DNA of 64,000 nt from Candidatus Nomurabacteria bacterium (lineage in GTDB: Bacteria; Patescibacteriota; Minisyncoccia; Phycocordibacterales; JAACPR01), in the NCBI GenBank assembly GCA_020632215.1, contig JACKFZ010000007.1, positions 1,187 through 65,186 on the forward strand, given 5' to 3'. Each line of letters starts with the position of its first letter. The first letter of the stretch is position 1. The position numbers and the translations under genes are program-made. The notes below the pieces were generated by a model. The model searched no databases and was not told the DNA's origin. It saw only the letters and a list, made by a program, of their open reading frames with translations. This document shows positions 3,289 through 55,300 of this stretch, piece after piece.

Positions 3289-3815
3289 AAAAATATATCG
3301 AATATATTATTTTATTTACTGCAGGAGGTGGTTTAGGTTTTCAGGTTGTTCATTTTTGGGAACATTTGATGCAAGTTTTTAACTGGATATTTGTTCAAAG
3401 ACAATATGCTTATATGACAGGGCTTGGCATGTCAGCTACTAATTATTTTGGGAATTTGTTTTTTTCTGGATATGGTATGTCTGATCAAACGAGATTGGGA
3501 ATGGAAGTTCTGCATCTTGTTGGTAATGGAATTTTTCTAATAGGGATAATTGCTGTTTGGTATTTTATAAAAAATCGTGAAATCTTATGGGCTTTGATTA
3601 TTGAGGCTTTACATTTTTGTGAACATATATCTCTGACTTTTTCATCAATTTTTACAGGACGATCCATCGGTTTTAGTACTTTATATGGTTTAGCAACAGA
3701 TCCACAATTCATGGTGACTTTCAGAGTTTGGTGGCACTTTATCTTAAATCTGGTGCCTAGTGTTTTGATCGTAGTGGGAATTGTATTATTTTTTAGATAT
3801 AAAAAAGTTAATTAA
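3285..3815 (+). CDS. polytopic membrane protein, function unknown
   Basis: 176-aa ORF, multiple hydrophobic segments, translationally coupled to the upstream ORF. Confidence 0.4.
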   Translation: MKKYIEYIILFTAGGGLGFQVVHFWEHLMQVFNWIFVQRQYAYMTGLGMSATNYFGNLFFSGYGMSDQTRLGMEVLHLVGNGIFLIGIIAVWYFIKNREILWALIIEALHFCEHISLTFSSIFTGRSIGFSTLYGLATDPQFMVTFRVWWHFILNLVPSVLIVVGIVLFFRYKKVN

Positions 3816-4425
3816 TTTTCAAAATCCCTTGCCTGATAACGTTAGGTTTTTCATCTGCAACATCAACAATTGTAGAATTCTGACCAGTGACTTCTCCTGC
3901 ATCAATAACTAAATCAATTAGATCTTTATTTTCCCTTAATTGTTCCAAAATACCTGTAACATTATTGAGATTTTCTTTTCCAGATATGTTGGCACTTGTT
4001 GTTGTGATAGGACAATCTAGTTTTTCTACAATTTTTAAAATAAAAGGAACATCAGGAATTCTGACTCCAAGTTTCTCGTCAGAACCTAATAAGTTAGATA
4101 AATCTTTATCTTTAGATGTGAGTATTAGGGTCAAGGCGCCTGGCAAGTAATTTCCAATTAATTGATTCGCAACTTCGTTTGTCTCAACATATCTTCCCAA
4201 CATATCTTTATTTGAAACTAATATAGATATTGGCTTTTGAGAATCTCTTTCTTTTATCTTTCTAACTTTGTTCACAGCATCTTTATTTGAAATCCTTGCT
4301 CCAAGTCCATATAGCGTATCTGTTGGATAGAGGATAATGCCACCAGTTTTTAATGTTTCCACAATTTTATTTTCTACACCAGTGTCGACTTGATTGAGGT
4401 CATCGATTTTTATGATTTCTGTCAT
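3808..4425 (-). CDS. tsaC: L-threonylcarbamoyladenylate synthase, YrdC/TsaC family
   Basis: 'GGIILYPTDTLYGLG', 'KIKERDSQKPISILV', 'TSANISG' YrdC-domain motifs. Confidence 0.8.
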   Translation of the reverse strand: MTEIIKIDDLNQVDTGVENKIVETLKTGGIILYPTDTLYGLGARISNKDAVNKVRKIKERDSQKPISILVSNKDMLGRYVETNEVANQLIGNYLPGALTLILTSKDKDLSNLLGSDEKLGVRIPDVPFILKIVEKLDCPITTTSANISGKENLNNVTGILEQLRENKDLIDLVIDAGEVTGQNSTIVDVADEKPNVIRQGILKIN

Positions 4426-4480
4426 AAGTGCAATATTAACTCAGTTTTTTTGTTTGTCTAATATATAATATGAGGTAATT

Positions 4481-5002
4481 ATGTTTAGAGTTTTTTCTGG
4501 AATAATTTTATTTTGTGTTGGAGCTAGTATTCTTATCTGGCTTTTAGGATACTTTCAGCCAGAAAATTACTCAGGAGAATTGCAGGAATTTTTTGCTGAT
4601 AGAAGACCAATTATTTGGCAAGCTATGACAGATATAAATTCAATTCCTCATATTAAAAACGATGTTGTTAATATAGAGATTTTAGAGGATAATCATGGCC
4701 TTTTGACTTGGAAAGAAAACACGAAGATGGGGGGATATCGTATTTATCAAATGGTAGAAAAAAAAGAACCTTTTAAATATACTGTCGATCTAGTAGAGAA
4801 CTCAAAAGGTTTAACTGGCACCTGGGTTTATTTTCTAGAAACATCTTCAGATGGTAGTATTGTTACTATACAAGAAGAGAGTAAAAATAATAATATTTGG
4901 ATCAGAGGTATAAATGCTATTCGTGGTCGTGATGTTAATATGAAGCATGCCATGAAAGTTTTAAGAGTATCTTTATTTAGAAGGTTAATTGATTCTCCGT
5001 AA
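4481..5002 (+). CDS. hypothetical protein with N-terminal membrane anchor
   Basis: 173-aa ORF, N-terminal hydrophobic helix, no recognisable catalytic motif. Confidence 0.35.
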   Translation: MFRVFSGIILFCVGASILIWLLGYFQPENYSGELQEFFADRRPIIWQAMTDINSIPHIKNDVVNIEILEDNHGLLTWKENTKMGGYRIYQMVEKKEPFKYTVDLVENSKGLTGTWVYFLETSSDGSIVTIQEESKNNNIWIRGINAIRGRDVNMKHAMKVLRVSLFRRLIDSP

Positions 5003-5004
5003 TT

Positions 5005-5406
5005 ATGGATAAAATTCAAAAAGATAATAGGCAATGGAAAGAGGAATTGGATCCAGAGGTTTATTCGGTGACTAGGGAAAGAGGGACAGAAGCGCCATTC
5101 AGTGGTAAATATTATAAACACAAAGAAAGTGGCAATTATGTTTGCTCTAACTGTGGTTTAGAACTTTTTTCATCAAAAGCTAAATATGATTCAGGAAGTG
5201 GTTGGCCTAGCTTTGATGATCCTGTTGCAAAAGATAATGTTGATCTTGTCCCAGACTATAGTCATGGCATGAGCAGAATGGAAGTTGTCTGTGCCAAGTG
5301 TGATGCCCACCTCGGACATGTTTTTGATGATGGACCACAAGATACAACAGGTAAGAGATATTGCATCAATTCATGTTCATTAGATTTTAAAAAAGAAAAT
5401 AAATAA
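5005..5406 (+). CDS. msrB: peptide-methionine (R)-S-oxide reductase MsrB
   Basis: Two CxxC pairs ('CSNCGLELF', 'CAKCDAHLGHVFDDGP') and 'GSGWPSF' SelR motif. Confidence 0.9.
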   Translation: MDKIQKDNRQWKEELDPEVYSVTRERGTEAPFSGKYYKHKESGNYVCSNCGLELFSSKAKYDSGSGWPSFDDPVAKDNVDLVPDYSHGMSRMEVVCAKCDAHLGHVFDDGPQDTTGKRYCINSCSLDFKKENK

Positions 5407-5408
5407 AT

Positions 5409-5930
5409 ATGAATGATTTTTTAACACCATTTTTATCATATGCAACTCTGGTAATACACATAGTATTAGTCTGTTTACTTATTTTGTTTTTCTTTCAAAA
5501 AGAAAATAAAATATTTAGGATTATCTTTAAAAATGGAATTTTACTTTCTTTTGTGCTGGCTTTCGTCAGTACTGGTATTAGTTTGTATTATTCTGATTAT
5601 GTTGGTTTTGAACCTTGTGTTTTGTGCTGGTATCAGAGAATACCAATGTATGCCTTGGCAATAATTTTATATCTCTCTATTGCTCGTAAAGATGATAAAT
5701 CAGTTATCCCATATGGATTGGCTCTTTCGGTCGTCGGAACAATCTTGGCCATTTATCATACTTATCTCGCTTACTTTTCTCAGGGTTCAAACACTTGCTC
5801 ACCATTTAGTAGTGTCTCATGTACAACAAAATATTTTAATTATTTTGGGTATATTTCAGTACCAACACTTTCTCTAAGCGCTTTTGTTATCATTACGTTA
5901 TTATTAATAGGTAAGAAGAAACATGACTAA
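5409..5930 (+). CDS. DsbB/BdbC-family disulfide bond formation protein
   Basis: Four TM helices, 'PCVLCWYQRIPMY' first Cys pair and a second Cys pair 'CSPFSSVSC' in the second periplasmic loop. Confidence 0.6.
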   Translation: MNDFLTPFLSYATLVIHIVLVCLLILFFFQKENKIFRIIFKNGILLSFVLAFVSTGISLYYSDYVGFEPCVLCWYQRIPMYALAIILYLSIARKDDKSVIPYGLALSVVGTILAIYHTYLAYFSQGSNTCSPFSSVSCTTKYFNYFGYISVPTLSLSAFVIITLLLIGKKKHD

Positions 5931-6408
5931 AATTTTTAATTTACTATTCAAAGTGGCTTTATGTATTATTGTTTTCTCACTTTTTGTGAACACAGTTCCT
6001 TTTGTAAAACACGTCAGTGCTTACCTTGGTGACGTGGCTTTTTCTCTTGGAGATACAAAACAAGCTGTGATAGGAGAAACATCTCTTGTTGTTGAGGTAG
6101 CTGACACAGAAAATGCTAGAAAAAAAGGATTATCTGGTAGAAGTCCTTTGGATACTTACGAAGGACTTTTCTTTGTTTTTGATACTACAGGAGTAAATGG
6201 AATATGGATGAAAGATATGAATTTTCCAATAGATATTATTTGGTTTAATGATCACAAAGAAGTTGTTTATATAGAACAAAATGTTCTACCAGATAGTTTC
6301 CCAGAAGTTTTTGGAACAAGTGTAAATAGTAAGTTTGTGTTAGAAGTTCCTTCAGGTTTTGTCAAAGTGAATAGAATTAAAAAAGGGGACTTATTTACTT
6401 TGTTATAA
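5923..6408 (+). CDS. DUF192 (COG1430) family protein
   Basis: 'VEVADTENARKKGLSGR...GLFFVF...IWMKDMNFPIDIIW' matches the DUF192 signature; N-terminal signal/TM. Confidence 0.6.
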   Translation: MTKIFNLLFKVALCIIVFSLFVNTVPFVKHVSAYLGDVAFSLGDTKQAVIGETSLVVEVADTENARKKGLSGRSPLDTYEGLFFVFDTTGVNGIWMKDMNFPIDIIWFNDHKEVVYIEQNVLPDSFPEVFGTSVNSKFVLEVPSGFVKVNRIKKGDLFTLL

Positions 6409-6424
6409 AAGTGTTGTAAAATGT

Positions 6425-7080
6425 GGTAGTACCTGATGATTGCTCTTTTATTATTTTAATGAAAGGGAGGAAAGTCCGAACACTTGTCCCGTGGCCCAGC
6501 GAAGCTGGGTTTTACGGGACAGAAGGGTAGCGCCCTAAATTTTCGCAAAACGAAAAAAGGGACCAATCACTTTAGTGATTTTGGTGGTAATACCCGTCGC
6601 CAGTGCTACGCACTGGGAATTCGAAATCAGAATGTCGAAATCCGAAAAAATATTAAGTCTTAAAATCTAAACAAATTGTTTATAATTTAAGATTTAGAAA
6701 TTAAAATTTGTTTCGAATTTCGTTTTTAGAATTTCGTGCTTCCGATGCGTAGTATTGGTAGAGGTGCGAGCAGAGACGCCACAATCGAAAGAAAGTGGCA
6801 CCCTTAACGGGGTGAGTACTATGGAAACATAGGTGCTAAATCACATACAAAAATTTCAATTTTTATATGTGATTGCACGATCAGATTTTTCTTTGAAAAA
6901 TCTGATTTAGTGAAACGGCAAAATCCTTACCTAAGTGCAAGACCGTGCCGCGTAAAGATGGCTTCGCCATCCACCCGGAGAGTCGCTAGAACCAAATAGT
7001 AATATTTGGTCCAGATAAATAATCATCTAGGATAGAGAAGCTCTATCTGATACAGAATTCGGCTTATAGGTACAAGCGAA
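6425..7080 (+). ncRNA. rnpB: RNase P RNA, bacterial type A, with an AT-rich expansion hairpin
   Basis: P4 5' strand 'GGAGGAAAGTCCGAAC' at ~6467. 'GTGCCGCGTAAAGATGGCTTCGCCATCCACCCGGAGAGTCGCTAGAACCAAATAG' matches E. coli 'GUGGCACGGUAAACUCCACCCGGAGCAAGGCCAAAUAGG'. P4 3' strand 'ACAGAATTCGGCTTAT' at ~7051. P1 pairing 'GTACCT'(6429)/'AGGTAC'(7068). GC-rich island in AT-rich DNA. Confidence 0.8.
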
Positions 7081-7097
7081 AATATGAGAAAAACCAC

Positions 7098-7130
7098 CTG
7101 CAAAGGTGGTTTTTCTCTTTAATTAATATG
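7098..7130 (+). terminator. Rho-independent terminator after rnpB
   Basis: 'AAAAACCACCTGCAAAGGTGGTTTTTCTCTTT' perfect hairpin plus T-run. Confidence 0.65.
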
Positions 7131-7170
7131 TAGTAGAATATTGATATTACAAGAGGTAAGTTTATTTTTT

Positions 7171-9561
7171 ATGTTTAATTTTAAAATCACAGAAGATCAA
7201 AGTGTGGAGACAATGCAGAAAGGATTGAGGGTTGAGAATGTTCCGTATCTGTTACTATTGCTAACTGTCTTTTTGTTACCAATTATCTTTTTACCACAGT
7301 CGGTATCTAGTTTGTTGGCAACCAAGATGTTTACTCTTCATGTTTTGGTGCTGGTTTCATTTTTCATCTGGATTTTAATGAAGCTGAGAACTCAATCAAT
7401 AAATTTACCTTTTAACCTCTCTGGGCTATCAATTGTATTAATACCAGCCATCTATGTTCTGGCAGCAGTTTTTTCAAAAAATATTCACCTCTCTTTTTTC
7501 GGCAGAGACTTTGCTGTTGATAGTGTTTTGTCAATTCTAACTTTCACCGCTCTTTTAACTCTGACAATCTCTAACCTTAAAGAAAAATCACAGGTAATAT
7601 ATCTATACGCCGTCCTATTTTTGTCATTTATAATAGTGGCTATTGTTCAATTGCTGAATTTGATTCCAATCTTTCCGTCATTTGGCTATTTTTCTAATAA
7701 TGTCATTACAACTATTGGAAAATGGAACGAATTGGCTGTTTTTGCTCTTATTATTGTAGTTCTGTCAATTACAATGGTTCACTTCATTAGATTGACTAAA
7801 GCCGTTCGTGCCGTGGTCTATGGTTCAACAGTTGTTGGCTTAGTCTTGTTAGTAATTATTAACTTCAAAATAGCTTGGTATATTTTAGCTCTTTTTACTC
7901 TTTTCCTATTTGTCTATCTAATCGTTGGTAAGAGAAAAGATGGGCATGGTACTACTATTCCGTTTACACCACTAGTGGTTTTTCTGATCTCTTTCTTGTT
8001 CATTGTTGCTGGGACAAATATTGGTAATGTTGTCTCAGATACTTTAAATATTAATCATTTTGAAGTTCGTCCGTCATGGAAATCGACAACTGAAATTATT
8101 GGTCAAACTTGGTCTAGTAAAAGAGCGATACTTGGCGTTGGTCCAGCTCTTTTTGAAACAGAATGGATTATGAATAGACCTTCTAGAGTTCTGACTACTG
8201 ATTTTTGGAACTTAGACTTTAGGTATGGAGTTGGTTTGATTCCATCTTACTTTTCTACTACAGGAATACTAGGGGCTCTTTCTTGGATATTCTTTCTGGG
8301 CTTAATTTTATTCTATGGATTCAAATCAGTATTTCGAGAATACGAAGATGGAATTCAAAAATATATTATATTCTCTTCATTTTCAGTTACTACCATTTTA
8401 TGGGTTATTAATATTATCTATTTACCAGGAACATTTTTGATTGCTACTACTTTTGTATTCACTGGAATTTTTATTAACAGCTTGTATAGAATTAATCTTT
8501 TACAGTTTAAAGATCTAAAGGTCGATACTGAGCCAAAATTCAATTTCATCTTTATTGCTGTTCTGGTTATTCTTTTGGCAAGTACTATTGGTTTAGTTTA
8601 CAAAGCAACAAATAAATTTGTTGCTCAAATACATTTTCAAAGAGCCATTGTTGATCTTAATGTTCAAGGCAATATTGCATTAGCAGAATCAGATTTGAGA
8701 AAGGCTTTGGAATTGGAGAACAATGATATATATCTTAGATCATTGGCTGAACTAGGAACTATCCGCATTACTCAAATTCTTGGTGACACTGTTACCCCTC
8801 AAGATTTACTAGTAGATCAGTTTAGAAATGTTTTGTCAGGAACTATCTCTAATTATCAGGATGCTATTGCTTTTGATGAGACAAATTACAATAACTACTT
8901 AGGTTTAGCAGAGTTGTATAGAGCACTTGGACCATTAAAGATTTCTGGCTCTTATGACCAAGCAGTAGTTTTCTACAATAGAGTGTCAGAGCTAAAACCT
9001 AATAATCCAGATGTCTTATTGCGAAATGCGAGATTAGAATTTGAACATGGGGATTCTGAGAAAGCCAAAGATCTAATTTCTCAAGCATTACAAATCAAAC
9101 CAAATTATGTAGATGCTGTTTTCCTTTATTCTCAAATTGAGGTCACAGCTGGCAACATTGGTTCGGCTATTGAAGCTATTCAGTCAGCTTCAGTCATTAA
9201 ACCAAATGATCCAACGATTTTCTTCCAATTAGGATTGCTTTATTATAATGATAGTCAGTTTGCCAGAGCAGTAGCTTCATTTGAAAGAGCAGTAGCGTTG
9301 AATCCTAATTTTCAAAATGCTAAATACTTCTTAGGATTGAGTTATCAGAAAACTAATAGAATTCAAGAATCAATTAGCCAATTCGATGATCTGGTTAAAC
9401 TAAATTCAGATAACGACGAAGTCAAATTGATTCTATCTAATCTAAAAGCTGGCCGAGCTCCATTTGTCGGAGCTGAACCACCAATTGATAATCAACCTGA
9501 AAGCCGGGAAGACTTACCATTAAATGATGGTGAATTAACAACTGACGAAGGGGAAGAATAA
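7171..9561 (+). CDS. large polytopic membrane protein (O-antigen ligase/Wzy-like) with C-terminal TPR repeats
   Basis: ~12 hydrophobic helices in the N-terminal 500 aa, then TPR-like repeats ('ALELENNDIYLRSLAELG', 'AVALNPNFQNAKYFLGLSYQ'). The track ORF begins at a TTG at 7141; the first ATG is at 7171. Confidence 0.45.
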   Translation: MFNFKITEDQSVETMQKGLRVENVPYLLLLLTVFLLPIIFLPQSVSSLLATKMFTLHVLVLVSFFIWILMKLRTQSINLPFNLSGLSIVLIPAIYVLAAVFSKNIHLSFFGRDFAVDSVLSILTFTALLTLTISNLKEKSQVIYLYAVLFLSFIIVAIVQLLNLIPIFPSFGYFSNNVITTIGKWNELAVFALIIVVLSITMVHFIRLTKAVRAVVYGSTVVGLVLLVIINFKIAWYILALFTLFLFVYLIVGKRKDGHGTTIPFTPLVVFLISFLFIVAGTNIGNVVSDTLNINHFEVRPSWKSTTEIIGQTWSSKRAILGVGPALFETEWIMNRPSRVLTTDFWNLDFRYGVGLIPSYFSTTGILGALSWIFFLGLILFYGFKSVFREYEDGIQKYIIFSSFSVTTILWVINIIYLPGTFLIATTFVFTGIFINSLYRINLLQFKDLKVDTEPKFNFIFIAVLVILLASTIGLVYKATNKFVAQIHFQRAIVDLNVQGNIALAESDLRKALELENNDIYLRSLAELGTIRITQILGDTVTPQDLLVDQFRNVLSGTISNYQDAIAFDETNYNNYLGLAELYRALGPLKISGSYDQAVVFYNRVSELKPNNPDVLLRNARLEFEHGDSEKAKDLISQALQIKPNYVDAVFLYSQIEVTAGNIGSAIEAIQSASVIKPNDPTIFFQLGLLYYNDSQFARAVASFERAVALNPNFQNAKYFLGLSYQKTNRIQESISQFDDLVKLNSDNDEVKLILSNLKAGRAPFVGAEPPIDNQPESREDLPLNDGELTTDEGEE

Positions 9562-11229
9562 ATGGTCAAAAAAGTTCTACAGTTTGTGGGCCGAGAGATA
9601 AAAGGTCTGCATGAAGCTGCCTATTTGTTAGGACTTTTTGCTTTTTTATCTCAATTATTAGGATTGGTTAGGGATAGGCTATTGGCCGCTCAGTTTGGTC
9701 CATCGTTAGAGTTAGATATTTACTACGCATCATTCCGTATTCCTGATTTATTGTTTGTGATTATATCTTCTCTAGTTTCTTTATCAGTTCTTGTTCCTTT
9801 TATTGTAAAAGTAATAAAGGATAATGAAGCAGAAAGACAAAAATTCATAGATACTATTTTCACAATTGTTTTTTTAATATCTATTTTTTTATCAGCTGCT
9901 GCTTTTATTTTAGCTAAACCTCTTTTGTTGATGTTGTTTCCGGATTTAATGCATGGCTCTCATGCCAACGAGCTTACTTTACTAACCAGGATCACTCTTT
10001 TACAGCCAATATTTCTTTCATTTTCTAGTTTCTATGCTAGTTTTGTGCAGGTTTACAAAAGATTTTTCATTTATGCTATTTCACCACTTTTATACAATCT
10101 TGGGATAATTTCCGGTATAGCAATCTTTTACAAATTTTTTGGATTATCAGGTCTTGCTGTTGGAGTTGTTTTAGGCTCTCTTATGCATTTAATTGTTCAA
10201 GTTCCTTATGTATCAAAATATGGAATTAACCCAAAATTAACTTTTTACCCAGACTTACTATTAGTTAAGCAAGTTTTGAAATTATCACTACCTAGAACAT
10301 TTGCTTTATTGGGTAATCAAATTATTCAAATTATTTTACTAGTTTTCGCTGGTAGTATGGTTGTTGGTTCTATTTCTATCTTCTCTCTTTCTTTTAACCT
10401 TCAGTCAGTACCATTGGCAATTATTGGTATGAGTTATTCTTTGGCAGCTTTTCCAACTTTAGCTAGATTTTTTGCTGATGGTGATATGGAAAGTTTCATT
10501 TTGCAAATTACAAAAGCTGCTAGACACATTCTATTTTGGTCTATTCCAATCACTGTGATGTTTATAGTTTTACGAGCTCAAATAGTTAGAACTATTTTAG
10601 GAACAGATCAGTTCTCGTGGAATGATACGAGACTAACTGCAGCTGCTCTAGCTATATTCTCTATCTCCATAGTGGCTCAAAGTTTGGCTTTGCTTTTTGT
10701 TAGAGGATTTTATTCAGCAGGAGAGACAAAGAAACCTGTATATTTTGCCTTCATTTCTGTTTTAGTAACCATCATTTCTTCTTTTCTATTCATATATTTA
10801 TTTAAGAACAACACTGCATTCTCCAATTTTTTGGAGTCATTATTAAAAGTCGAAGGTCTTAATGGAACAGTAGTTCTGATGTTGCCATTAGCATTTTCTA
10901 TTGGTCAGATTGTAAATGCTGTTTTGCTTTGGTCACATTTTGATAGGGCATACAAGTTTTTTTCAAATATTTTGTGGAGATCAGTTTTTCACTCGGTCGG
11001 TTCTTCTCTAATTGCTGGTTTCTGCACTTTTATTTTCTTGAGATTACTTGATAATGTTTTTGATCTAGAAACTTTGCTTGGAATCTTTGCGCAAGGATTT
11101 TTAGCTGGTGTTGGAGGTTTAATTATAGGTGCTTTAGTTCTACTTCTGTTGGGTAATCAGGAGATACGAACTGTTTGGAAAACTTTGCATCATAAGATTT
11201 TGAAAACCAGATTTATTGGCGGGGAGTAG
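9562..11229 (+). CDS. murJ: lipid II flippase MurJ/MviN
   Basis: N-terminus 'LSQLLGLVRDRLLAAQFGPSLELDIYYASFRIPDLL' typical of MurJ; 14 predicted TM helices; 1-bp gap to the upstream gene. Confidence 0.75.
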   Translation: MVKKVLQFVGREIKGLHEAAYLLGLFAFLSQLLGLVRDRLLAAQFGPSLELDIYYASFRIPDLLFVIISSLVSLSVLVPFIVKVIKDNEAERQKFIDTIFTIVFLISIFLSAAAFILAKPLLLMLFPDLMHGSHANELTLLTRITLLQPIFLSFSSFYASFVQVYKRFFIYAISPLLYNLGIISGIAIFYKFFGLSGLAVGVVLGSLMHLIVQVPYVSKYGINPKLTFYPDLLLVKQVLKLSLPRTFALLGNQIIQIILLVFAGSMVVGSISIFSLSFNLQSVPLAIIGMSYSLAAFPTLARFFADGDMESFILQITKAARHILFWSIPITVMFIVLRAQIVRTILGTDQFSWNDTRLTAAALAIFSISIVAQSLALLFVRGFYSAGETKKPVYFAFISVLVTIISSFLFIYLFKNNTAFSNFLESLLKVEGLNGTVVLMLPLAFSIGQIVNAVLLWSHFDRAYKFFSNILWRSVFHSVGSSLIAGFCTFIFLRLLDNVFDLETLLGIFAQGFLAGVGGLIIGALVLLLLGNQEIRTVWKTLHHKILKTRFIGGE

Positions 11230-14440: not shown

Positions 14441-14914
14441 GTGACTAATATATACATAGATGCTTCTAACTTACATTTATCTTCTAAAGAGTTGGGTTTT
14501 GAAATTAATTATAAAAAGTTTATTGGATGGTTGAGACAAAAATATAAACCAACATACATCTATCTGTTTATTGGTTTTGTTCCTAATAACAAGAATACAT
14601 ATAAAAAACTATCTAGACTTGGTTATAATTTAATATTAAAAGACGCTGTTATTGTTGGTAGTAAAAAAATTAAAGGTAATTGTGATACAGAAATAGTGTT
14701 ACAGATGTGTTTAGATTTTTTTGATAACTCTAAGAAAGATTTTATTTTGATATCAGGAGATGGGGACTTTAAATGTGTTGTTGATTTTTTGATAAATAAA
14801 AATAGTAATGTATTAGTTCTTGCTCCTAATTCTCACAGATGTTCGATTTTGTTAAAAAGAACAAGTATTAGAATAACTTATTTGAATAATCATTATCACA
14901 AATTTTCTACCTAA
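14441..14914 (+). CDS. NYN (LabA-like) domain protein
   Basis: 'IYIDASNLH...YIYLFIGF...LISGDGDFKCVVDFL' NYN/LabA signature; GTG start. Confidence 0.55.
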   Translation: MTNIYIDASNLHLSSKELGFEINYKKFIGWLRQKYKPTYIYLFIGFVPNNKNTYKKLSRLGYNLILKDAVIVGSKKIKGNCDTEIVLQMCLDFFDNSKKDFILISGDGDFKCVVDFLINKNSNVLVLAPNSHRCSILLKRTSIRITYLNNHYHKFST

Positions 14915-15152: not shown

Positions 15153-15455
15153 ATGAATGAGGAAGAAAAAGCCCTTTTAGAAGAGTCTATAAAGCTTTCT
15201 AGGGAAAATAACAAGATTCTACGTGGAATGCGCAGAGATGCCAGAATTGAGCGTTTTTGGCACTTTCTTAAGTGGATTGTAATCATTGTGGCAACCATTT
15301 GGTCATATTACCTTATTCAGCCGTATTTAGAGCAATTACAGGGTGCTTATCAGAATATTCAGGACGCAAAGAATGCCGTTAGTGATATTCAAGGTAAGGT
15401 CCAAGTGGATACTTCTCAGATACAAAATTTTTTCAATAATTTGAAAAATAATTAA
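15153..15455 (+). CDS. small hypothetical protein with one TM helix
   Basis: 100-aa ORF; 'WHFLKWIVIIVATIWSYYLI' hydrophobic segment. Confidence 0.3.
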   Translation: MNEEEKALLEESIKLSRENNKILRGMRRDARIERFWHFLKWIVIIVATIWSYYLIQPYLEQLQGAYQNIQDAKNAVSDIQGKVQVDTSQIQNFFNNLKNN

Positions 15456-15468
15456 AAAGTCAGGATAG

Positions 15469-15719
15469 CTCCCTAAATGATTGCTACGCAATCATCGGGC
15501 ACAGCAGTTATTAGAGCATTCACAGTTAGTATAAAAGTTGTTATAAATAAATTATGTCAGGATAGCTCAGTTCCCGCCAGAGGCGGACAGGGTCCGAGCA
15601 TTCACAGTTAGTATAAAAGTTGTTATAAATAAATTATGTCAGGATAGCTCAGTTCCCGCCAGAGGCGGACAGGGTCCGAGCATTCACAGTTAGTATAAAA
15701 GTTGTTATAAATAAATTAT
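15469..15719 (+). repeat. three tandem partial pseudo-copies of the tRNA-Phe 5' region (unit 82 bp; one divergent then two identical)
   Basis: 'GTCAGGATAGCTCAGTTCCCGCCAGAGGCGGACAGGGTCCGAGCATTCACAGTTAGTATAAAAGTTGTTATAAATAAATTAT' at 15556 and 15638, plus a diverged copy at 15469; each starts with the first 17 nt of the tRNA. Confidence 0.85.
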
Positions 15720-15795
15720 GTCAGGATAGCTCAGTTGGTAGAGCATTCGCCTGAAGAGCGAAGGGTCGGCGGTTCGAGCCCGCCTCCTGACACCA
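15720..15795 (+). tRNA. tRNA-Phe (anticodon GAA), CCA encoded
   Basis: 'GTCAGGATAGCTCAGTTGGTAGAGCATTCGCCTGAAGAGCGAAGGGTCGGCGGTTCGAGCCCGCCTCCTGACACCA'. Confidence 0.85.
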
Positions 15796-15842
15796 AATTT
15801 ACAATTACCACTAAACAACGCGAAGCGTTGTGAGCTGACACC

Positions 15843-15862
15843 GAGCCCGCCTCCTGACACCA
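15843..15862 (+). repeat. 20-bp direct repeat of the tRNA-Phe 3' end (att-like scar)
   Basis: 'GAGCCCGCCTCCTGACACCA' is identical to tRNA positions 57-76 and lies 47 bp downstream of the gene; the hairpin 'CAACGCGAAGCGTTG' sits between them. Confidence 0.7.
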
Positions 15863-15926
15863 CTTAATAACTCTGTCATCCCCATCTTGTCTGGGAATGA
15901 TGGAGAAGTAAAAGGTTGATATTTGT

Positions 15927-16487
15927 TTAATCCCAATCCCAATTATTGAATGCTTTGGGAACAAGTTCGCCTTTAGAGTTTTTAACAATTCTATAAAATG
16001 CTAAAGTACCTTTATTGTTTTTTCTTCTTGAAGATATTCCAAATACAAAAGGCTTACTGCTAGAAAACTCTCCGTTAGCGTAATGTTGTATCCATTGTTC
16101 AACATCTGTTGGAGATGGTAAGTGAGAGCTATCTTCGGCTTTAGGATGTGTGTGCACTTCTCCTATTATTTCAAGATTTGCCACTTGGTGACCTTCCAGC
16201 TTTGCTTGTCTCAAAGTTTCTTGTAATTCATTGAAATCTACCTCTACTTCATTTTTAGAACCAGAATTATTTGTTTCTATAATCCCTTTAATATCTATGT
16301 GTACTTTATCTCCACGAACACTCCAGTTACCAATAAGTGCAATATATTTTTCTTGACCAGAGACTAAATCTTCCTCTGTAACTCTAGGAAAATCACCTAG
16401 ATTTCTAGAGTCAATTCTCATGTCGTAATCTAAACTTTCTGTAAGGTAATCAATAGACCTTTCACTTTCGTGGCTCTCTATATTCAT
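15927..16487 (-). CDS. hypothetical protein with JAB/MPN-like (JAMM) metalloprotease motif
   Basis: 'EIIGEVHTHPKAEDSSHLPSPTD' resembles E..HxH..S..D JAMM, but the spacing is longer than canonical. Confidence 0.35.
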   Translation of the reverse strand: MNIESHESERSIDYLTESLDYDMRIDSRNLGDFPRVTEEDLVSGQEKYIALIGNWSVRGDKVHIDIKGIIETNNSGSKNEVEVDFNELQETLRQAKLEGHQVANLEIIGEVHTHPKAEDSSHLPSPTDVEQWIQHYANGEFSSSKPFVFGISSRRKNNKGTLAFYRIVKNSKGELVPKAFNNWDWD

Positions 16488-16528
16488 AGCATAATATTAG
16501 CATTGAATGTGTGAGACAGAAATTGCAC

Positions 16529-23073: not shown

Positions 23074-23145
23074 GGCCCTATCGTCTAACGGTTAGGACAG
23101 CAGGTTTTCATTCTGCAAATCGGGGTTCGATTCCCCGTAGGGTCA
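23074..23145 (+). tRNA. tRNA-Glu (anticodon TTC)
   Basis: 'GGCCCTATCGTCTAACGGTTAGGACAGCAGGTTTTCATTCTGCAAATCGGGGTTCGATTCCCCGTAGGGTCA'. Confidence 0.85.
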
Positions 23146-23250
23146 CACGATAAAAAATACATATAGCGAAGCGATATGTATTTTTGTATCGCTTAGATCT
23201 TGCGAATTTTCGTTAAAGCCTGCCCCGTAAATGAGCGGAGCGAATTATAC

Positions 23251-23273
23251 GGGGATTCCCCGTAGGGTCACCA
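23251..23273 (+). repeat. direct repeat of the tRNA-Glu 3' end (att-like), opening the cassette-like array
   Basis: 'GGGGATTCCCCGTAGGGTCACCA' shares 17 identical nt ('ATTCCCCGTAGGGTCAC') with the tRNA 3' terminus, 106 bp downstream of the gene. Confidence 0.7.
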
Positions 23274-54241: not shown

Positions 54242-54526
54242 TGTGCCCGGGGCGGGAATCGAACCCGCATCCCAGAGGGACACGCAAATATTTTATAGCA
54301 AGTCGTGCGTGTATACATGCAACCATACTATTGCTATGTGCCCGGGGCGGGAATCGAACCCGCATCCCAGAGGGACACGCAAATATTTTATAGCAAGTCG
54401 TGCGTGTATACATGCAACCATACTATTGCTATGTGCCCGGGGCGGGAATCGAACCCGCATCCCAGAGGGACACGCAAATATTTTATAGCAAGTCGTGCGT
54501 GTATACATGCAACCATACTATTGCTA
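54242..54526 (-). repeat. three tandem 95-bp pseudo-tRNA-Leu(TAA) copies
   Basis: Each unit shares the 3' 43 nt of the tRNA ('TGCCCGGGGCGGGAATCGAACCCGCATCCCAGAGGGACACG' on plus), has an anticodon loop expanded by 11 nt ('CTTGCTATAAAATATTTG') and an unrelated 5' part; period exactly 95 bp. Confidence 0.85.
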
Positions 54527-54528
54527 TG

Positions 54529-54609
54529 TGCCCGGGGCGGGAATCGAACCCGCATCCCAGAGGGACACGATTTTAAGTCGTGCGTGTATACCAATTCCAC
54601 CACCCGGGC
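54529..54609 (-). tRNA. tRNA-Leu (anticodon TAA)
   Basis: Reverse complement 'GCCCGGGTGGTGGAATTGGTATACACGCACGACTTAAAATCGTGTCCCTCTGGGATGCGGGTTCGATTCCCGCCCCGGGCA'. Confidence 0.8.
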
Positions 54610-54790: not shown

Positions 54791-55300
54791 TTAAATAATT
54801 CGTTTTACTTTATCTGTGATTTTTTCTGGTTTAAGTTTAAAGTAATTATCAAAATGGTCAAATTTTCTTTTGAGAAAGAAACCATCTCTTTTATCTTTAT
54901 AAAGCCAACAGAATAATTTAATTGATTGGGAACTATCATAATATAGCCTATAAGCTCTTGAATATTTCTTGATGTTTGCTTTTATACCAGCATTTTCTTC
55001 CAATTTTGCTCTCAATATCTTTAAGAATTCGTATCTTCCGCAAGTGAATATAATTCTTAATCTTTTTATCTTATCTTCTAGTTTTTCTATATAAACACAC
55101 CCATTCCCATCAAAGTACCCTAAAACAAAACTATTTAGATATTTTTTAGGAATATCTGGGAATAACATTGTTGTGGATTTGTTCGGATATAAACCAATTT
55201 GTTGTAACGAATTATATATATCTTTGTCTCCAATTCTCAATAAATAAAGTTTCTTGTGATTATTATATTGTGATGAAGAGATTTTATGCTCTGAACTCAA
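54791..55300 (-). CDS. free-standing LAGLIDADG-family homing endonuclease-like protein
   Basis: 'NSFVLGYFDGNGCVYIEK' LAGLIDADG-type motif; 169 aa (single-motif size); 6 bp from tRNA-Cys. Confidence 0.55.
   Translation of the reverse strand: MSSEHKISSSQYNNHKKLYLLRIGDKDIYNSLQQIGLYPNKSTTMLFPDIPKKYLNSFVLGYFDGNGCVYIEKLEDKIKRLRIIFTCGRYEFLKILRAKLEENAGIKANIKKYSRAYRLYYDSSQSIKLFCWLYKDKRDGFFLKRKFDHFDNYFKLKPEKITDKVKRII

Follow-up and report, generated by a model that had tools for sequence, protein, structure and literature searches.

Mobile DNA classically inserts at transfer RNA (tRNA) genes. The integrated elements reportedly leave attL and attR repeats at tRNA 3' ends and are said to accrete there as tandem islands; sublocation classes of their integrases are said to go back to Williams in 2002. 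Structured leaders of tRNA precursors and stem-loops of 3' untranslated regions (3' UTRs) protect mRNA ends in tRNA-punctuated transcripts. In the plastids of Brassicaceae, Solanaceae and Asteraceae, 1–7 tandem partial copies of 32–73 bp lie immediately 5' of the functional trnF(GAA) gene; their number varies with the lineage, they stand among promoter-like spacer motifs, most are anticodon-domain fragments in which the acceptor strands are usually missing, and they are ascribed to illegitimate recombination or slippage (PMC3786074). Here, a tRNA-Phe(GAA) locus was analysed in a stretch of 64,000 nucleotides from Candidatus Nomurabacteria bacterium (GenBank assembly GCA_020632215.1, contig JACKFZ010000007.1, positions 1,187 to 65,186 of the forward strand), the whole of which is called the window below. 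The locus combines two separate phenomena: a repeat of the tRNA 3' end on the downstream side and, on the upstream side, tandem units (also called modules) in which the first third of the tRNA is combined with a hairpin in the place of the D-loop. The upstream units are not random decay.

The nearest published analogue of these units is the plastid trnF(GAA) pseudogene array. As in plastids, partial copies of a tRNA-Phe(GAA) gene lie directly 5' of the functional gene, three in the window and 1–4 in relatives; unlike the plastid copies, the bacterial units keep the 5' acceptor strand and the D-stem, are devoid of anticodon loop and T-arm, and have a hairpin instead of the D-loop, which covaries in the clade of locus L031. 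The units resemble structured leaders and 3' UTR stem-loops in their position between the stop codon of an open reading frame (ORF) and the 5' end of a tRNA, in their stable hairpin without T-run and in their compensatory changes, but they are built from the tRNA's own 5' third, stand in tandem arrays and match no Rfam family. Split and intron-bearing tRNA genes of Nanoarchaeota and other archaea also have a free-standing 5' fragment with a GC-rich pairing element and a non-canonical D-loop insertion; in contrast, an intact tRNA-Phe adjoins the units described here, the fragment ends at nt ~30 and the host is a bacterium. No matching tRNA 3' half was found, the only 3' fragment being 21 nt long. 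A split or permuted tRNA gene was rejected on account of the adjacent intact tRNA-Phe, and a CRISPR-like array for want of its defining features. Repetitive extragenic palindromes or bacterial interspersed mosaic elements (REP/BIME) and miniature inverted-repeat transposable elements (MITE) were rejected as well: within the 64 kb, the insert of unit B occurs only in units B and C, and the examined loci have no module away from tRNA-Phe. Full-text literature searches found no published description of such modules in bacteria.

The downstream side is comparable to integrative elements that use tRNA ends. The window has an exact 20–21-nt copy of the tRNA from T-loop to CCA after the intact gene, followed by lineage-specific foreign DNA, and a related genome (L084) has an intact form, with a recombinase and a homolog of the JAB gene between 18-nt repeats of a different tRNA. 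It differs from such elements in that the repeats are only 47 bp apart, no recombinase is present at the locus and the candidate cargo lies outside the repeats; moreover, the recombinases of the relatives are of the large serine type, which usually leaves no long repeat.

Anatomy of the tRNA-Phe locus

The features of the locus are as follows (positions are those of the window).

15153..15455, + strand: conserved ORF of ~100 aa for a small membrane/coiled-coil protein (tblastn)
15459..15555, + strand: unit A, 97 bp, made of tRNA nt 1–13 (15459–15471), a 33-nt insert (15472–15504), degenerate CAGTTATTAGAGCATTC and a spacer
15556..15637, + strand: unit B, 82 bp, made of tRNA nt 1–17 (15556–15572), an insert, GGTccGAGCATTC and a 34-nt spacer (15604–15637)
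15638..15719, + strand: unit C, 100% identical to unit B
15720..15795, + strand: intact tRNA-Phe(GAA) with encoded CCA
15796..15842, + strand: 47-bp segment between the two copies of the tRNA 3' end, with a terminator-like hairpin and a deleted 3'-end copy
15842..15862, + strand: displaced 21-nt 3' end of tRNA-Phe, comprising part of the T-loop, the 3' strand of the T-stem, the 3' strand of the acceptor stem and CCA
15927..16487, − strand: JAB/MPN gene with the JAMM motif HTH...SPTD, a lineage-specific insertion between tRNA-Phe and hsp20

The tRNA-Phe gene is the only intact one at the locus (ARAGORN; 70.3 bits with the Rfam tRNA model). Each upstream unit follows the same plan: tRNA nt 1–13 or 1–17, a hairpin in the place of the D-loop, tRNA nt 18–29 or 22–29, and a spacer that copies the sequence preceding the tRNA. 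The 17-mer GTCAGGATAGCTCAGTT occurs exactly at 15556, 15638 and 15720, the last occurrence being the tRNA itself, and no shuffled sequence equalled this count. All three units end in an identical 42-nt tail, composed of GAGCATTC, which is itself tRNA-Phe nt 22–29, and of the 34-nt AT-rich spacer. A tandem repeat with a period of 82 bp, 2.7 copies and 100% identity was delimited at 15514–15736 by Tandem Repeats Finder. Unit A begins 3 nt after the stop codon of the ~100-aa ORF. Its insert contains the perfect hairpin ATGATTGC-TAC-GCAATCAT at 15477–15495; the degenerate D-loop/D-stem piece ends at 15521 and the spacer occupies 15522–15555. The insert of unit B is the 18-nt CCCGCCAGAGGCGGACAG (15573–15590), with the stem CCGCC/GGCGG, and the piece that follows it (15591–15603) corresponds to tRNA nt 18–29 with A21 replaced by CC. 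The B-type units are two or more, an exact count being fixed neither by the assembly nor by the Logan contigs.

The first-pass annotation of the window had placed the start of the array at 15469, 10 nt downstream of the actual start at 15459, and had described three upstream units of 82 bp, each beginning with the exact 17-nt 5' end of the tRNA and diverging after it. There are indeed three units, and this description fits B and C; unit A is 97 bp long and shares 13 nt only, and beyond the 5' end GAGCATTC is tRNA-derived in all of them. That the last 20 nt of the tRNA recur downstream, with 47 bp and a hairpin in between, was confirmed. The 20-mer lies at 15776–15795 and 15843–15862 (0 copies expected by chance, from shuffles), and the full repeat is 21 nt long (15775–15795 and 15842–15862). 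The 47-bp segment contains the terminator-like hairpin ACAACGC-GAA-GCGTTGT at 15815–15831, without a T-run, followed by GAGCTGACACC (15832–15842), a third copy of the tRNA 3' end with an internal deletion.

The gene order around the locus is LepA, DivIC, glutaredoxin, (NYN), tRNA-Arg, the ~100-aa ORF, tRNA-Phe, (JAB), Hsp20, PrsW and LeuRS. The flanking proteins are 100% identical to MCB9806167/8 of a Candidatus Nomurabacteria metagenome-assembled genome.

Recurrence of the upstream units in related genomes

Loci for comparison (numbered with the prefix L) were obtained by scanning genome and metagenome collections with the 17-mer and the 20-mer, which yielded ~50 syntenic loci of Paceibacteria/Parcubacteria; ~20 further loci were added through exact-protein look-ups. 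The ~100-aa ORF is directly 5' of tRNA-Phe in ~50 loci, with 26–81% identity (tblastn), and in most relatives the tRNA begins 3–30 nt past its stop codon. The exact-protein look-up for strain variants found no identical copy of the ORF protein. The pairing of this ORF with tRNA-Phe is strikingly conserved in very divergent Paceibacteria (L012–L097; ORF of ~90–100 aa, identity down to 26%).

Fragments of the tRNA 5' end were found upstream of tRNA-Phe in L019, L027, L028, L031 and L034, and the hairpin-bearing architecture between the same small ORF and tRNA-Phe was found in at least six other species, with 1–4 copies. In these relatives the 5' fragment occupies the usual start of the tRNA, and the real tRNA lies ~85 nt beyond. 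The module was also present in all four further species of the L031 clade that could be obtained. The upstream copies are as follows.

L027, L031 and L028: one hairpin-bearing unit each upstream of tRNA-Phe
L019: two 37-nt units, no hairpin
L034: one 16-nt duplication
L088/L089: tandem array of four units that differ from one another, recovered in both of two independent assemblies
L091: one unit
L092–L097: one unit
L087: partial unit
L029: trace only (ATTCAGTGT)

The consensus of the L031 clade is CAT/GTCAGGATAGCTC-CTWG-(stem of 7–9 bp)-(loop KGCCGY...CAG)-(stem)-CAG/GGTAGAGCATTC-AGTGT...AAAACAT. Unit B of the window fits this layout, with nt 1–17 and ...ACAG/GGTccGAGCATTC, including the ACAG/GGT junction. 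A hairpin in the D-loop position is seen in three distant lineages. The module is absent from two close relatives, L077 (compared with the window) and L014 (compared with L028), and gains and losses must therefore be recurrent. Among the 117 tRNAs in the examined loci, 5' copies accompany tRNA-Phe only. No module was found away from tRNA-Phe in these loci or on IMG/VR viral contigs, nor did a mobile element with such a module come to light. The comparison with related genomes that the first-pass annotation had suggested showed recurrent 5' modules, a variable downstream junction and no JAB gene at this junction in the relatives.

Two further observations concern the relatives. In the closest one, L076, whose ORF is 81% identical, the stop codon of the ORF is followed at 2575–2605 by CGACCTGCCACGTCGACGTGGCAGGTCG, a perfect palindrome of 28 nt; no tRNA 5' fragment precedes it, and the contig ends there. 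L092 and L094 are 99.6% identical over 5.2 kb, and 19 of their ~24 differences fall into two short patches (~2958–2977 and ~3587–3598) that are wholly replaced. These are the terminator hairpin of tRNA-Phe (CCCAAGCACGTACGTGCTTGGG versus CCCCGAATGCATAAGCGTCCGGGG) and a 12-nt intergenic patch.

Structure and covariation of the hairpins

Covariation was analysed on an alignment of 10 distinct copies from five species of the L031 clade. In the hairpin, 92.5% of the cells are paired, and both partners have changed in eight pairs; in 500 shuffles the observed values were never reached. When the partners were shifted by 1–3 columns as a control, pairing fell to 27–44%. These compensatory changes were observed in the L031 clade; the hairpins of the window have no alignable relatives. 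RNAalifold added basal pairs of GGAU with AUUC and of GCUC with GAGC, by which the whole module of the clade becomes one rod-like hairpin that ties up acceptor nt 5–8. Each unit folded singly also gave a stable hairpin and the same rod.

Homology of the window units with the clade module was tried and rejected: the scores of covariance model R1 for them are not above those of genuine tRNA 5' ends, and what is shared is the architecture. Units of the window and of L088 matched no Rfam family other than the tRNA models. No T-run follows any of the upstream hairpins, and canonical terminators follow tRNA-Phe in the relatives; terminators of the upstream ORF were ruled out on the first of these grounds. 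Duplication of a promoter was considered too. By eye, the spacer of the window offers TTCACA-N17-TATAAA as well as a TGn-extended −10, but the scanning tool reported none, and the spacers of the L031 clade are without a consistent −10; it was dropped as the main explanation. An origin of the unit B hairpin from the T-arm of the tRNA, with which it shares CCGCC/GGCGG and AGGGTC, was rejected for the misfitting order of the pieces and for the unrelated hairpins of other lineages. The AGGGT of unit B is the conserved CAG/GGT junction.

The downstream repeat, the JAB gene and mobile elements

The gap between tRNA-Phe and hsp20 measures 35–164 nt in ~22 relatives, 256–774 nt in ~18 and 1.4–1.8 kb in five. 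A bidirectional terminator alone separates the two genes in the ~22 relatives with a short gap; in the wider gaps (0.25–1.8 kb), the inserted DNA and its genes differ among relatives. The junction is therefore a general insertion hotspot in this bacterial group. A hotspot at tRNA-Phe had been proposed from the window, which holds insofar as the insertions at this junction vary among relatives; it is not specific to Phe, since tRNA-Glu and tRNA-Leu(taa) also have partial copies. The displaced 3' fragment is missing in most of the relatives examined, as expected of the empty site of an att scar, and the JAB gene is absent from this junction in all ~45 of them. Given an exact repeat that is not expected by chance and a junction that varies in ~45 syntenic relatives, reading the repeat as an att-type signature is supported, as is the assignment of the JAB/MPN-like gene to the kind carried by mobile elements.

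The JAB/MPN protein was detected with Pfam Prok-JAB (E = 4e-5, just under the curated cutoff) and with the JAB model of PADLOC (3e-7), and its NCBI name is Mov34/MPN/PAD-1. Only two homologs were detectable. One of them, P0007 in L084 (46% identity), is cargo of a recombinase-bearing element, in which JAB has the opposite orientation compared with the window. This apparently intact element (3302–10228, ~6.8 kb) comprises tRNA-Leu(tag), a large serine recombinase, the JAB homolog, five unknown ORFs and an 18-nt repeat. The segment starts at the tRNA 3' end, the recombinase (435 aa) adjoins tRNA-Leu(tag), and the 18-nt repeat of the 3' end of this tRNA sits just before an hsp20 gene. L084 is a 383-kb Patescibacteria contig, on which type IV secretion system (T4SS) pilin and TrbC genes lie just upstream of the 6.8-kb element. 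Homologs of its recombinase (55–63% identity) are present in ~5 further relatives (seven loci), either in the tRNA-Arg/ORF/tRNA-Phe neighbourhood or beside tRNA-Glu.

In L028, a distant Zambryskibacteria metagenome-assembled genome (MAG), the junction GTTGTGACC/GAGCCTGCCTCCTGACACCA lies 196 nt past a tRNA-Phe without encoded CCA. The junction of the window, GTTGTGAgctgacaCC/GAGCCCGCCTCCTGACACCA (GAGCCC...), matches it, the common motif before the displaced fragment being GTTGTGA..CC. Closer relatives of the window and of L028 are without an intact displaced fragment, and L014 retains a truncated trace only. A junction common to two distant genomes and absent in intact form from closer relatives points to the arm of one element family. 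An 18-nt repeat of the tRNA-Phe 3' end is present in L015.

The downstream 21-nt copy thus fits an integration scar, and the JAB gene is probably leftover cargo of a mobile element. A mobile element would have integrated site-specifically at the T-loop/3' end of tRNA-Phe, displacing the 21-nt end; nearly all of it would have been deleted later, 47 bp remaining, and the JAB gene would be cargo from an earlier or related insertion. Several results weigh against this explanation. Only 47 non-coding bp and no recombinase lie between the 3' repeats, and the JAB gene is outside them. No recombinase was found at the locus, the neighbours being JAB, Hsp20 and PrsW, although no scan for tyrosine integrases was run over the whole window; the 64 kb contain no homolog of the serine recombinase of L084. 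Finally, no long tRNA-end repeats were found around the serine-recombinase elements of L027, L055, L057 and L059–L061.

An element bounded by the same 20-mer elsewhere, for which the first-pass annotation had advised a search, did not turn up: no second 20-mer bounding a large element was found in the 64 kb, and no genome or metagenome contig had two copies. A phage attachment site was rejected, the 20-mer being absent from IMG/VR, where the 17-mer had two unrelated coding matches and the module pattern none. Inspection by eye of the DNA between JAB and hsp20 (16488–16528) for a degenerate third copy of the 3' end gave nothing convincing.

Two observations were made beside these. An NYN-domain (PIN-like RNase) gene lies at 14441–14914 (+ strand), between the glutaredoxin gene and the 3' side of tRNA-Arg(cct); L027 has an element with a large serine recombinase at this position, and NYN may also be island cargo. 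On the − strand of L028, a stretch of ~150 nt (~47–215 nt past tRNA-Phe) extends from GTCAGGA, 47 nt past the tRNA, to the displaced fragment. Since TCCTGACACCA forms its end and GGTTCGAA lies within it, a giant acceptor stem of tRNA type is possible in principle; this is probably due to chance.

Origin and possible role of the upstream units

We favour, at about an even chance of its being right, a composite explanation, in which the 3' side is an integration scar with cargo and the 5' side consists of recurrent, structurally constrained partial duplications, amplified by unequal recombination, whose action, if any, would be that of self-contained hairpins in an ORF–tRNA transcript. A module would arise when the spacer and the first ~30 nt of the tRNA are duplicated in tandem and a palindromic insert is acquired at the D-loop. 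At least two such events would have occurred in the window, because hairpins A and B are unrelated and are placed after nt 13 and nt 17, respectively, with identical 42-nt tails. The array would then grow and shrink by unequal recombination or slippage between identical flanks of 55–59 nt, which the identity of units B and C fits. The small ORF, the modules and tRNA-Phe are probably co-transcribed, as the gap of 3–30 nt between ORF and tRNA in relatives leaves no room for a separate promoter. In such a transcript, GGAU.GCUC would pair with GAGC.AUUC to form a rod extended by the inserted hairpin. The rod would stop the decoy 5' strand from competing with the 5' half of the real tRNA, and RNase P cleavage at the true tRNA would leave the mRNA of the ORF with a protective 3' stem-loop. 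Our best guess for the role of the module is accordingly an inert or stabilising rod hairpin in the ORF–tRNA co-transcript. Constraint or function is suggested by the trace, at least, that every sampled species of the clade keeps, by the invariant flanking bases that are not tRNA-derived and by the compensatory transitions. A recurrent mutational or recombinational origin is suggested by the unrelated hairpins A and B, by close relatives without modules and by the hairpins abutting displaced 3' fragments.

Other results are less favourable to the composite explanation. The reduction of the module to a trace in L029 and to a partial unit in L087 means that it is not essential. Single units have modest folding z-scores (−1.4 to −2.5), and the covariance model of the clade gives the window units ~24–27 bits, no higher than the 5' parts of real tRNAs. 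That the palindrome lands at the D-loop position each time has no explanatory mechanism. Nearly all the non-Watson–Crick pairs of the clade hairpin, one per copy, are A.C on the + strand and hence G.U on the − strand (127 Watson–Crick, 1 G.U and 12 mismatched pair cells on the + strand; 127, 11 and 2 on the − strand). With ~3–4 independent events behind it, this asymmetry would be less in keeping with a plus-strand leader than with an RNA of the minus strand or with a palindrome in the DNA. L028 has the opposite strand preference, for the + strand. It is also possible, and in our estimate rather unlikely, that selection maintains in Paceibacteria a structured RNA element so far undescribed, namely the tRNA-Phe 5' third with a hairpin for its D-loop. 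This element might act as a cis insulator or 3'-end stabiliser, as a decoy for factors that bind the acceptor and D-arm, or as a guide-like antisense RNA of the minus strand with arms for tRNA-Phe nt 1–13 and 18–30, and its copy number of 1–4 would be tuned by unequal recombination.

The upstream units had been read in the first-pass annotation as the scars of repeated integration and excision. All partial copies would then be due to mobile elements: the modules would be attL-type junctions of a family of elements with a crossover site in the D-loop region of tRNA-Phe, which supply their own promoter/spacer together with nt 1–13 or 1–17, the hairpins would be palindromic recombinase-binding arms, and successive variants of an element would have accreted in tandem and lost their interiors. 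This is a tentative alternative that we think unlikely. The same architecture at the same position in distant lineages, and the compensatory changes of the hairpin in one clade, do not agree with it. Hairpins A and B, unrelated and inserted at different nucleotides between identical flanks, do suggest independent insertions, the distribution of the modules among close relatives is patchy, and serine-recombinase elements are common around the locus in relatives. In the window, a hairpin stands before each displaced 3' fragment, that of tRNA-Glu as well as that of tRNA-Phe. Where the L084 element ends, the 18-nt tRNA-Leu end is directly abutted by the hairpin GTCCGCC-CACA-GGCGGAC, in which CCGCC..GGCGGAC is shared with the hairpin of unit B; a palindrome bound by a dimeric protein would give 'covariation' too. 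Yet in ~55 loci no element, recombinase or extra DNA lies between module and tRNA, the layout being always compact (~81–97 bp), and the examined loci and viral contigs have nothing like the module off tRNA-Phe. The homologous type-I hairpins of L027, L088 and L091 differ by compensatory pairs of the transition type with a nearly unchanged loop, which speaks for evolution in place; the central 13–16 nt of the clade hairpins are asymmetric, unlike typical serine-recombinase sites; and a single crossover would place foreign DNA after nt ~30 and not in the D-loop. Replication slippage, also proposed at first, is, with unequal recombination, the obvious route to identical units B and C, but the units are not meaningless products of it. 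A wholly neutral origin by slippage or template switching, without function or mobile element, in which snap-back synthesis yields the palindromic filler, arm copying the pairing and gene conversion the identity with the tRNA, is decidedly improbable. It would account for the complete identity of B with C and of the 3.5 copies of the Leu(taa) array, for hairpin-less short 5' duplications (a 16-bp period in L034, two 37-bp units in L019) and for the resemblance, in each genome, of the ~10 nt before the module to the ~10 nt before the tRNA (ATAAAATTCAT in L031), which is expected of tandem duplication with concerted evolution. The replacement of a whole terminator hairpin between strains that are 99.6% identical points to fast hairpin turnover, and plastid trnF(GAA) pseudogene arrays are generally explained in this way (PMC3786074). 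Template switching, however, cannot bring new sequence to both arms. The CTWG and CAG flanks, which are not from the tRNA, are invariant in a clade whose neighbouring protein is 58–85% identical, and conservation is higher in the 17-nt GTCAGGATAGCTCCTWG than in the piece GAGCATTC, which comes from the tRNA; gene conversion from the tRNA would not have this effect. Nor would a neutral process be expected to leave at least a trace of the module in every one of the six or seven species of the clade that were sampled and the same layout of a hairpin in the D-loop in three distant lineages.

Two further possibilities were weighed. The units might be minus-strand genes for antisense RNAs acting in trans or in cis, each with a 14-bp hairpin and arms complementary to tRNA-Phe nt 18–30 and 1–13 that leave D-loop nt 14–17 unpaired in a three-way junction; we give this very little credence. 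Besides the pair counts above, the minus-strand folds are 1–4 kcal/mol more stable and uniform in five hairpin types (10 bp, a 2-nt bulge, 4 bp and a 3–4-nt loop), and the arm complementary to nt 1–13 is invariant. On the other side, the few mismatch events behind the strand asymmetry, the better folding of L028 and of window unit A on the plus strand, the decay of the nt 18–30 arm in L092 and a scan that found no promoter-like site inside the array on either strand all speak against it, and such arms follow trivially from a plus strand that carries tRNA fragments. We know of no guide-RNA system for tRNA in bacteria. An assembly artefact, in which a loop of the assembly graph was traversed too often and the true count is one unit or none, is scarcely believable. 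Identical tandem units cannot be counted by short-read assemblers, and C is a 100% match to B; A is different from B, however, so that at least two modules are unambiguous. Logan contigs of three other SRA runs are 100% identical from the tRNA 3' part through the 47 bp and the second 20-mer to JAB, and two of them terminate 1–2 nt beyond the shared 17-mer, where a repeat would be expected to break the graph. The array of a related species, with four units that are not identical and can therefore be assembled unambiguously, was recovered in two independent assemblies with only two single-nucleotide polymorphisms (SNPs) in 5.3 kb.

Partial copies at other tRNA genes of the window

Three of the eight tRNAs of the window carry partial copies, namely Phe, Glu(ttc) and Leu(taa), and the process that makes such copies is active genome-wide in this organism. 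The copies outside the tRNA-Phe locus are as follows.

23255..23271, + strand: 17-nt copy of the 3' end of tRNA-Glu(ttc), 108 nt past the gene (23074–23146), directly preceded by the hairpin CCCCGTA...TACGGGG
54242..54527, − strand: three identical 95-nt units downstream of tRNA-Leu(taa) (54528–54609), each made of a 22-nt spacer, tRNA nt ~20–35, 16 nt in place of the anticodon loop and the entire 3' part of the tRNA

Each unit of the Leu(taa) array copies the 3' two-thirds of the tRNA, and the 16-nt GCTATAAAATATTTGC that replaces the anticodon loop creates a CACGCA/TGCGTG stem. The array mirrors the 5' array of tRNA-Phe. In L059, a homolog of the serine recombinase adjoins the 3' end of tRNA-Glu(ttc). 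An ORF resembling LAGLIDADG homing endonucleases (Pfam E = 2e-6; 54791–55300, − strand) ends 6 nt before tRNA-Cys and heads the tRNA-Cys/tRNA-Leu(taa) pair; tRNA-Lys and tRNA-Leu(tag) lie 0.5 kb downstream of this pair. Breaks induced by an endonuclease could be one source of partial duplications.

Significance

The downstream part of the locus is a routine case of a tRNA landing site, which shows that JAB-carrying serine-recombinase elements use tRNA ends in Patescibacteria. The upstream module, variable in copy number, reappears at one conserved gene junction in several lineages of ultra-small bacteria that diverged deeply from each other. If it is not functional, it records an unusual mutational process of tRNA genes, partial duplication with palindromic filler, which resembles the long-puzzling plastid trnF arrays and also touches tRNA-Glu and tRNA-Leu of this genome. 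If it is functional, the module would represent a new RNA, either cis-acting or small, in organisms in which RNA biology has hardly been explored.

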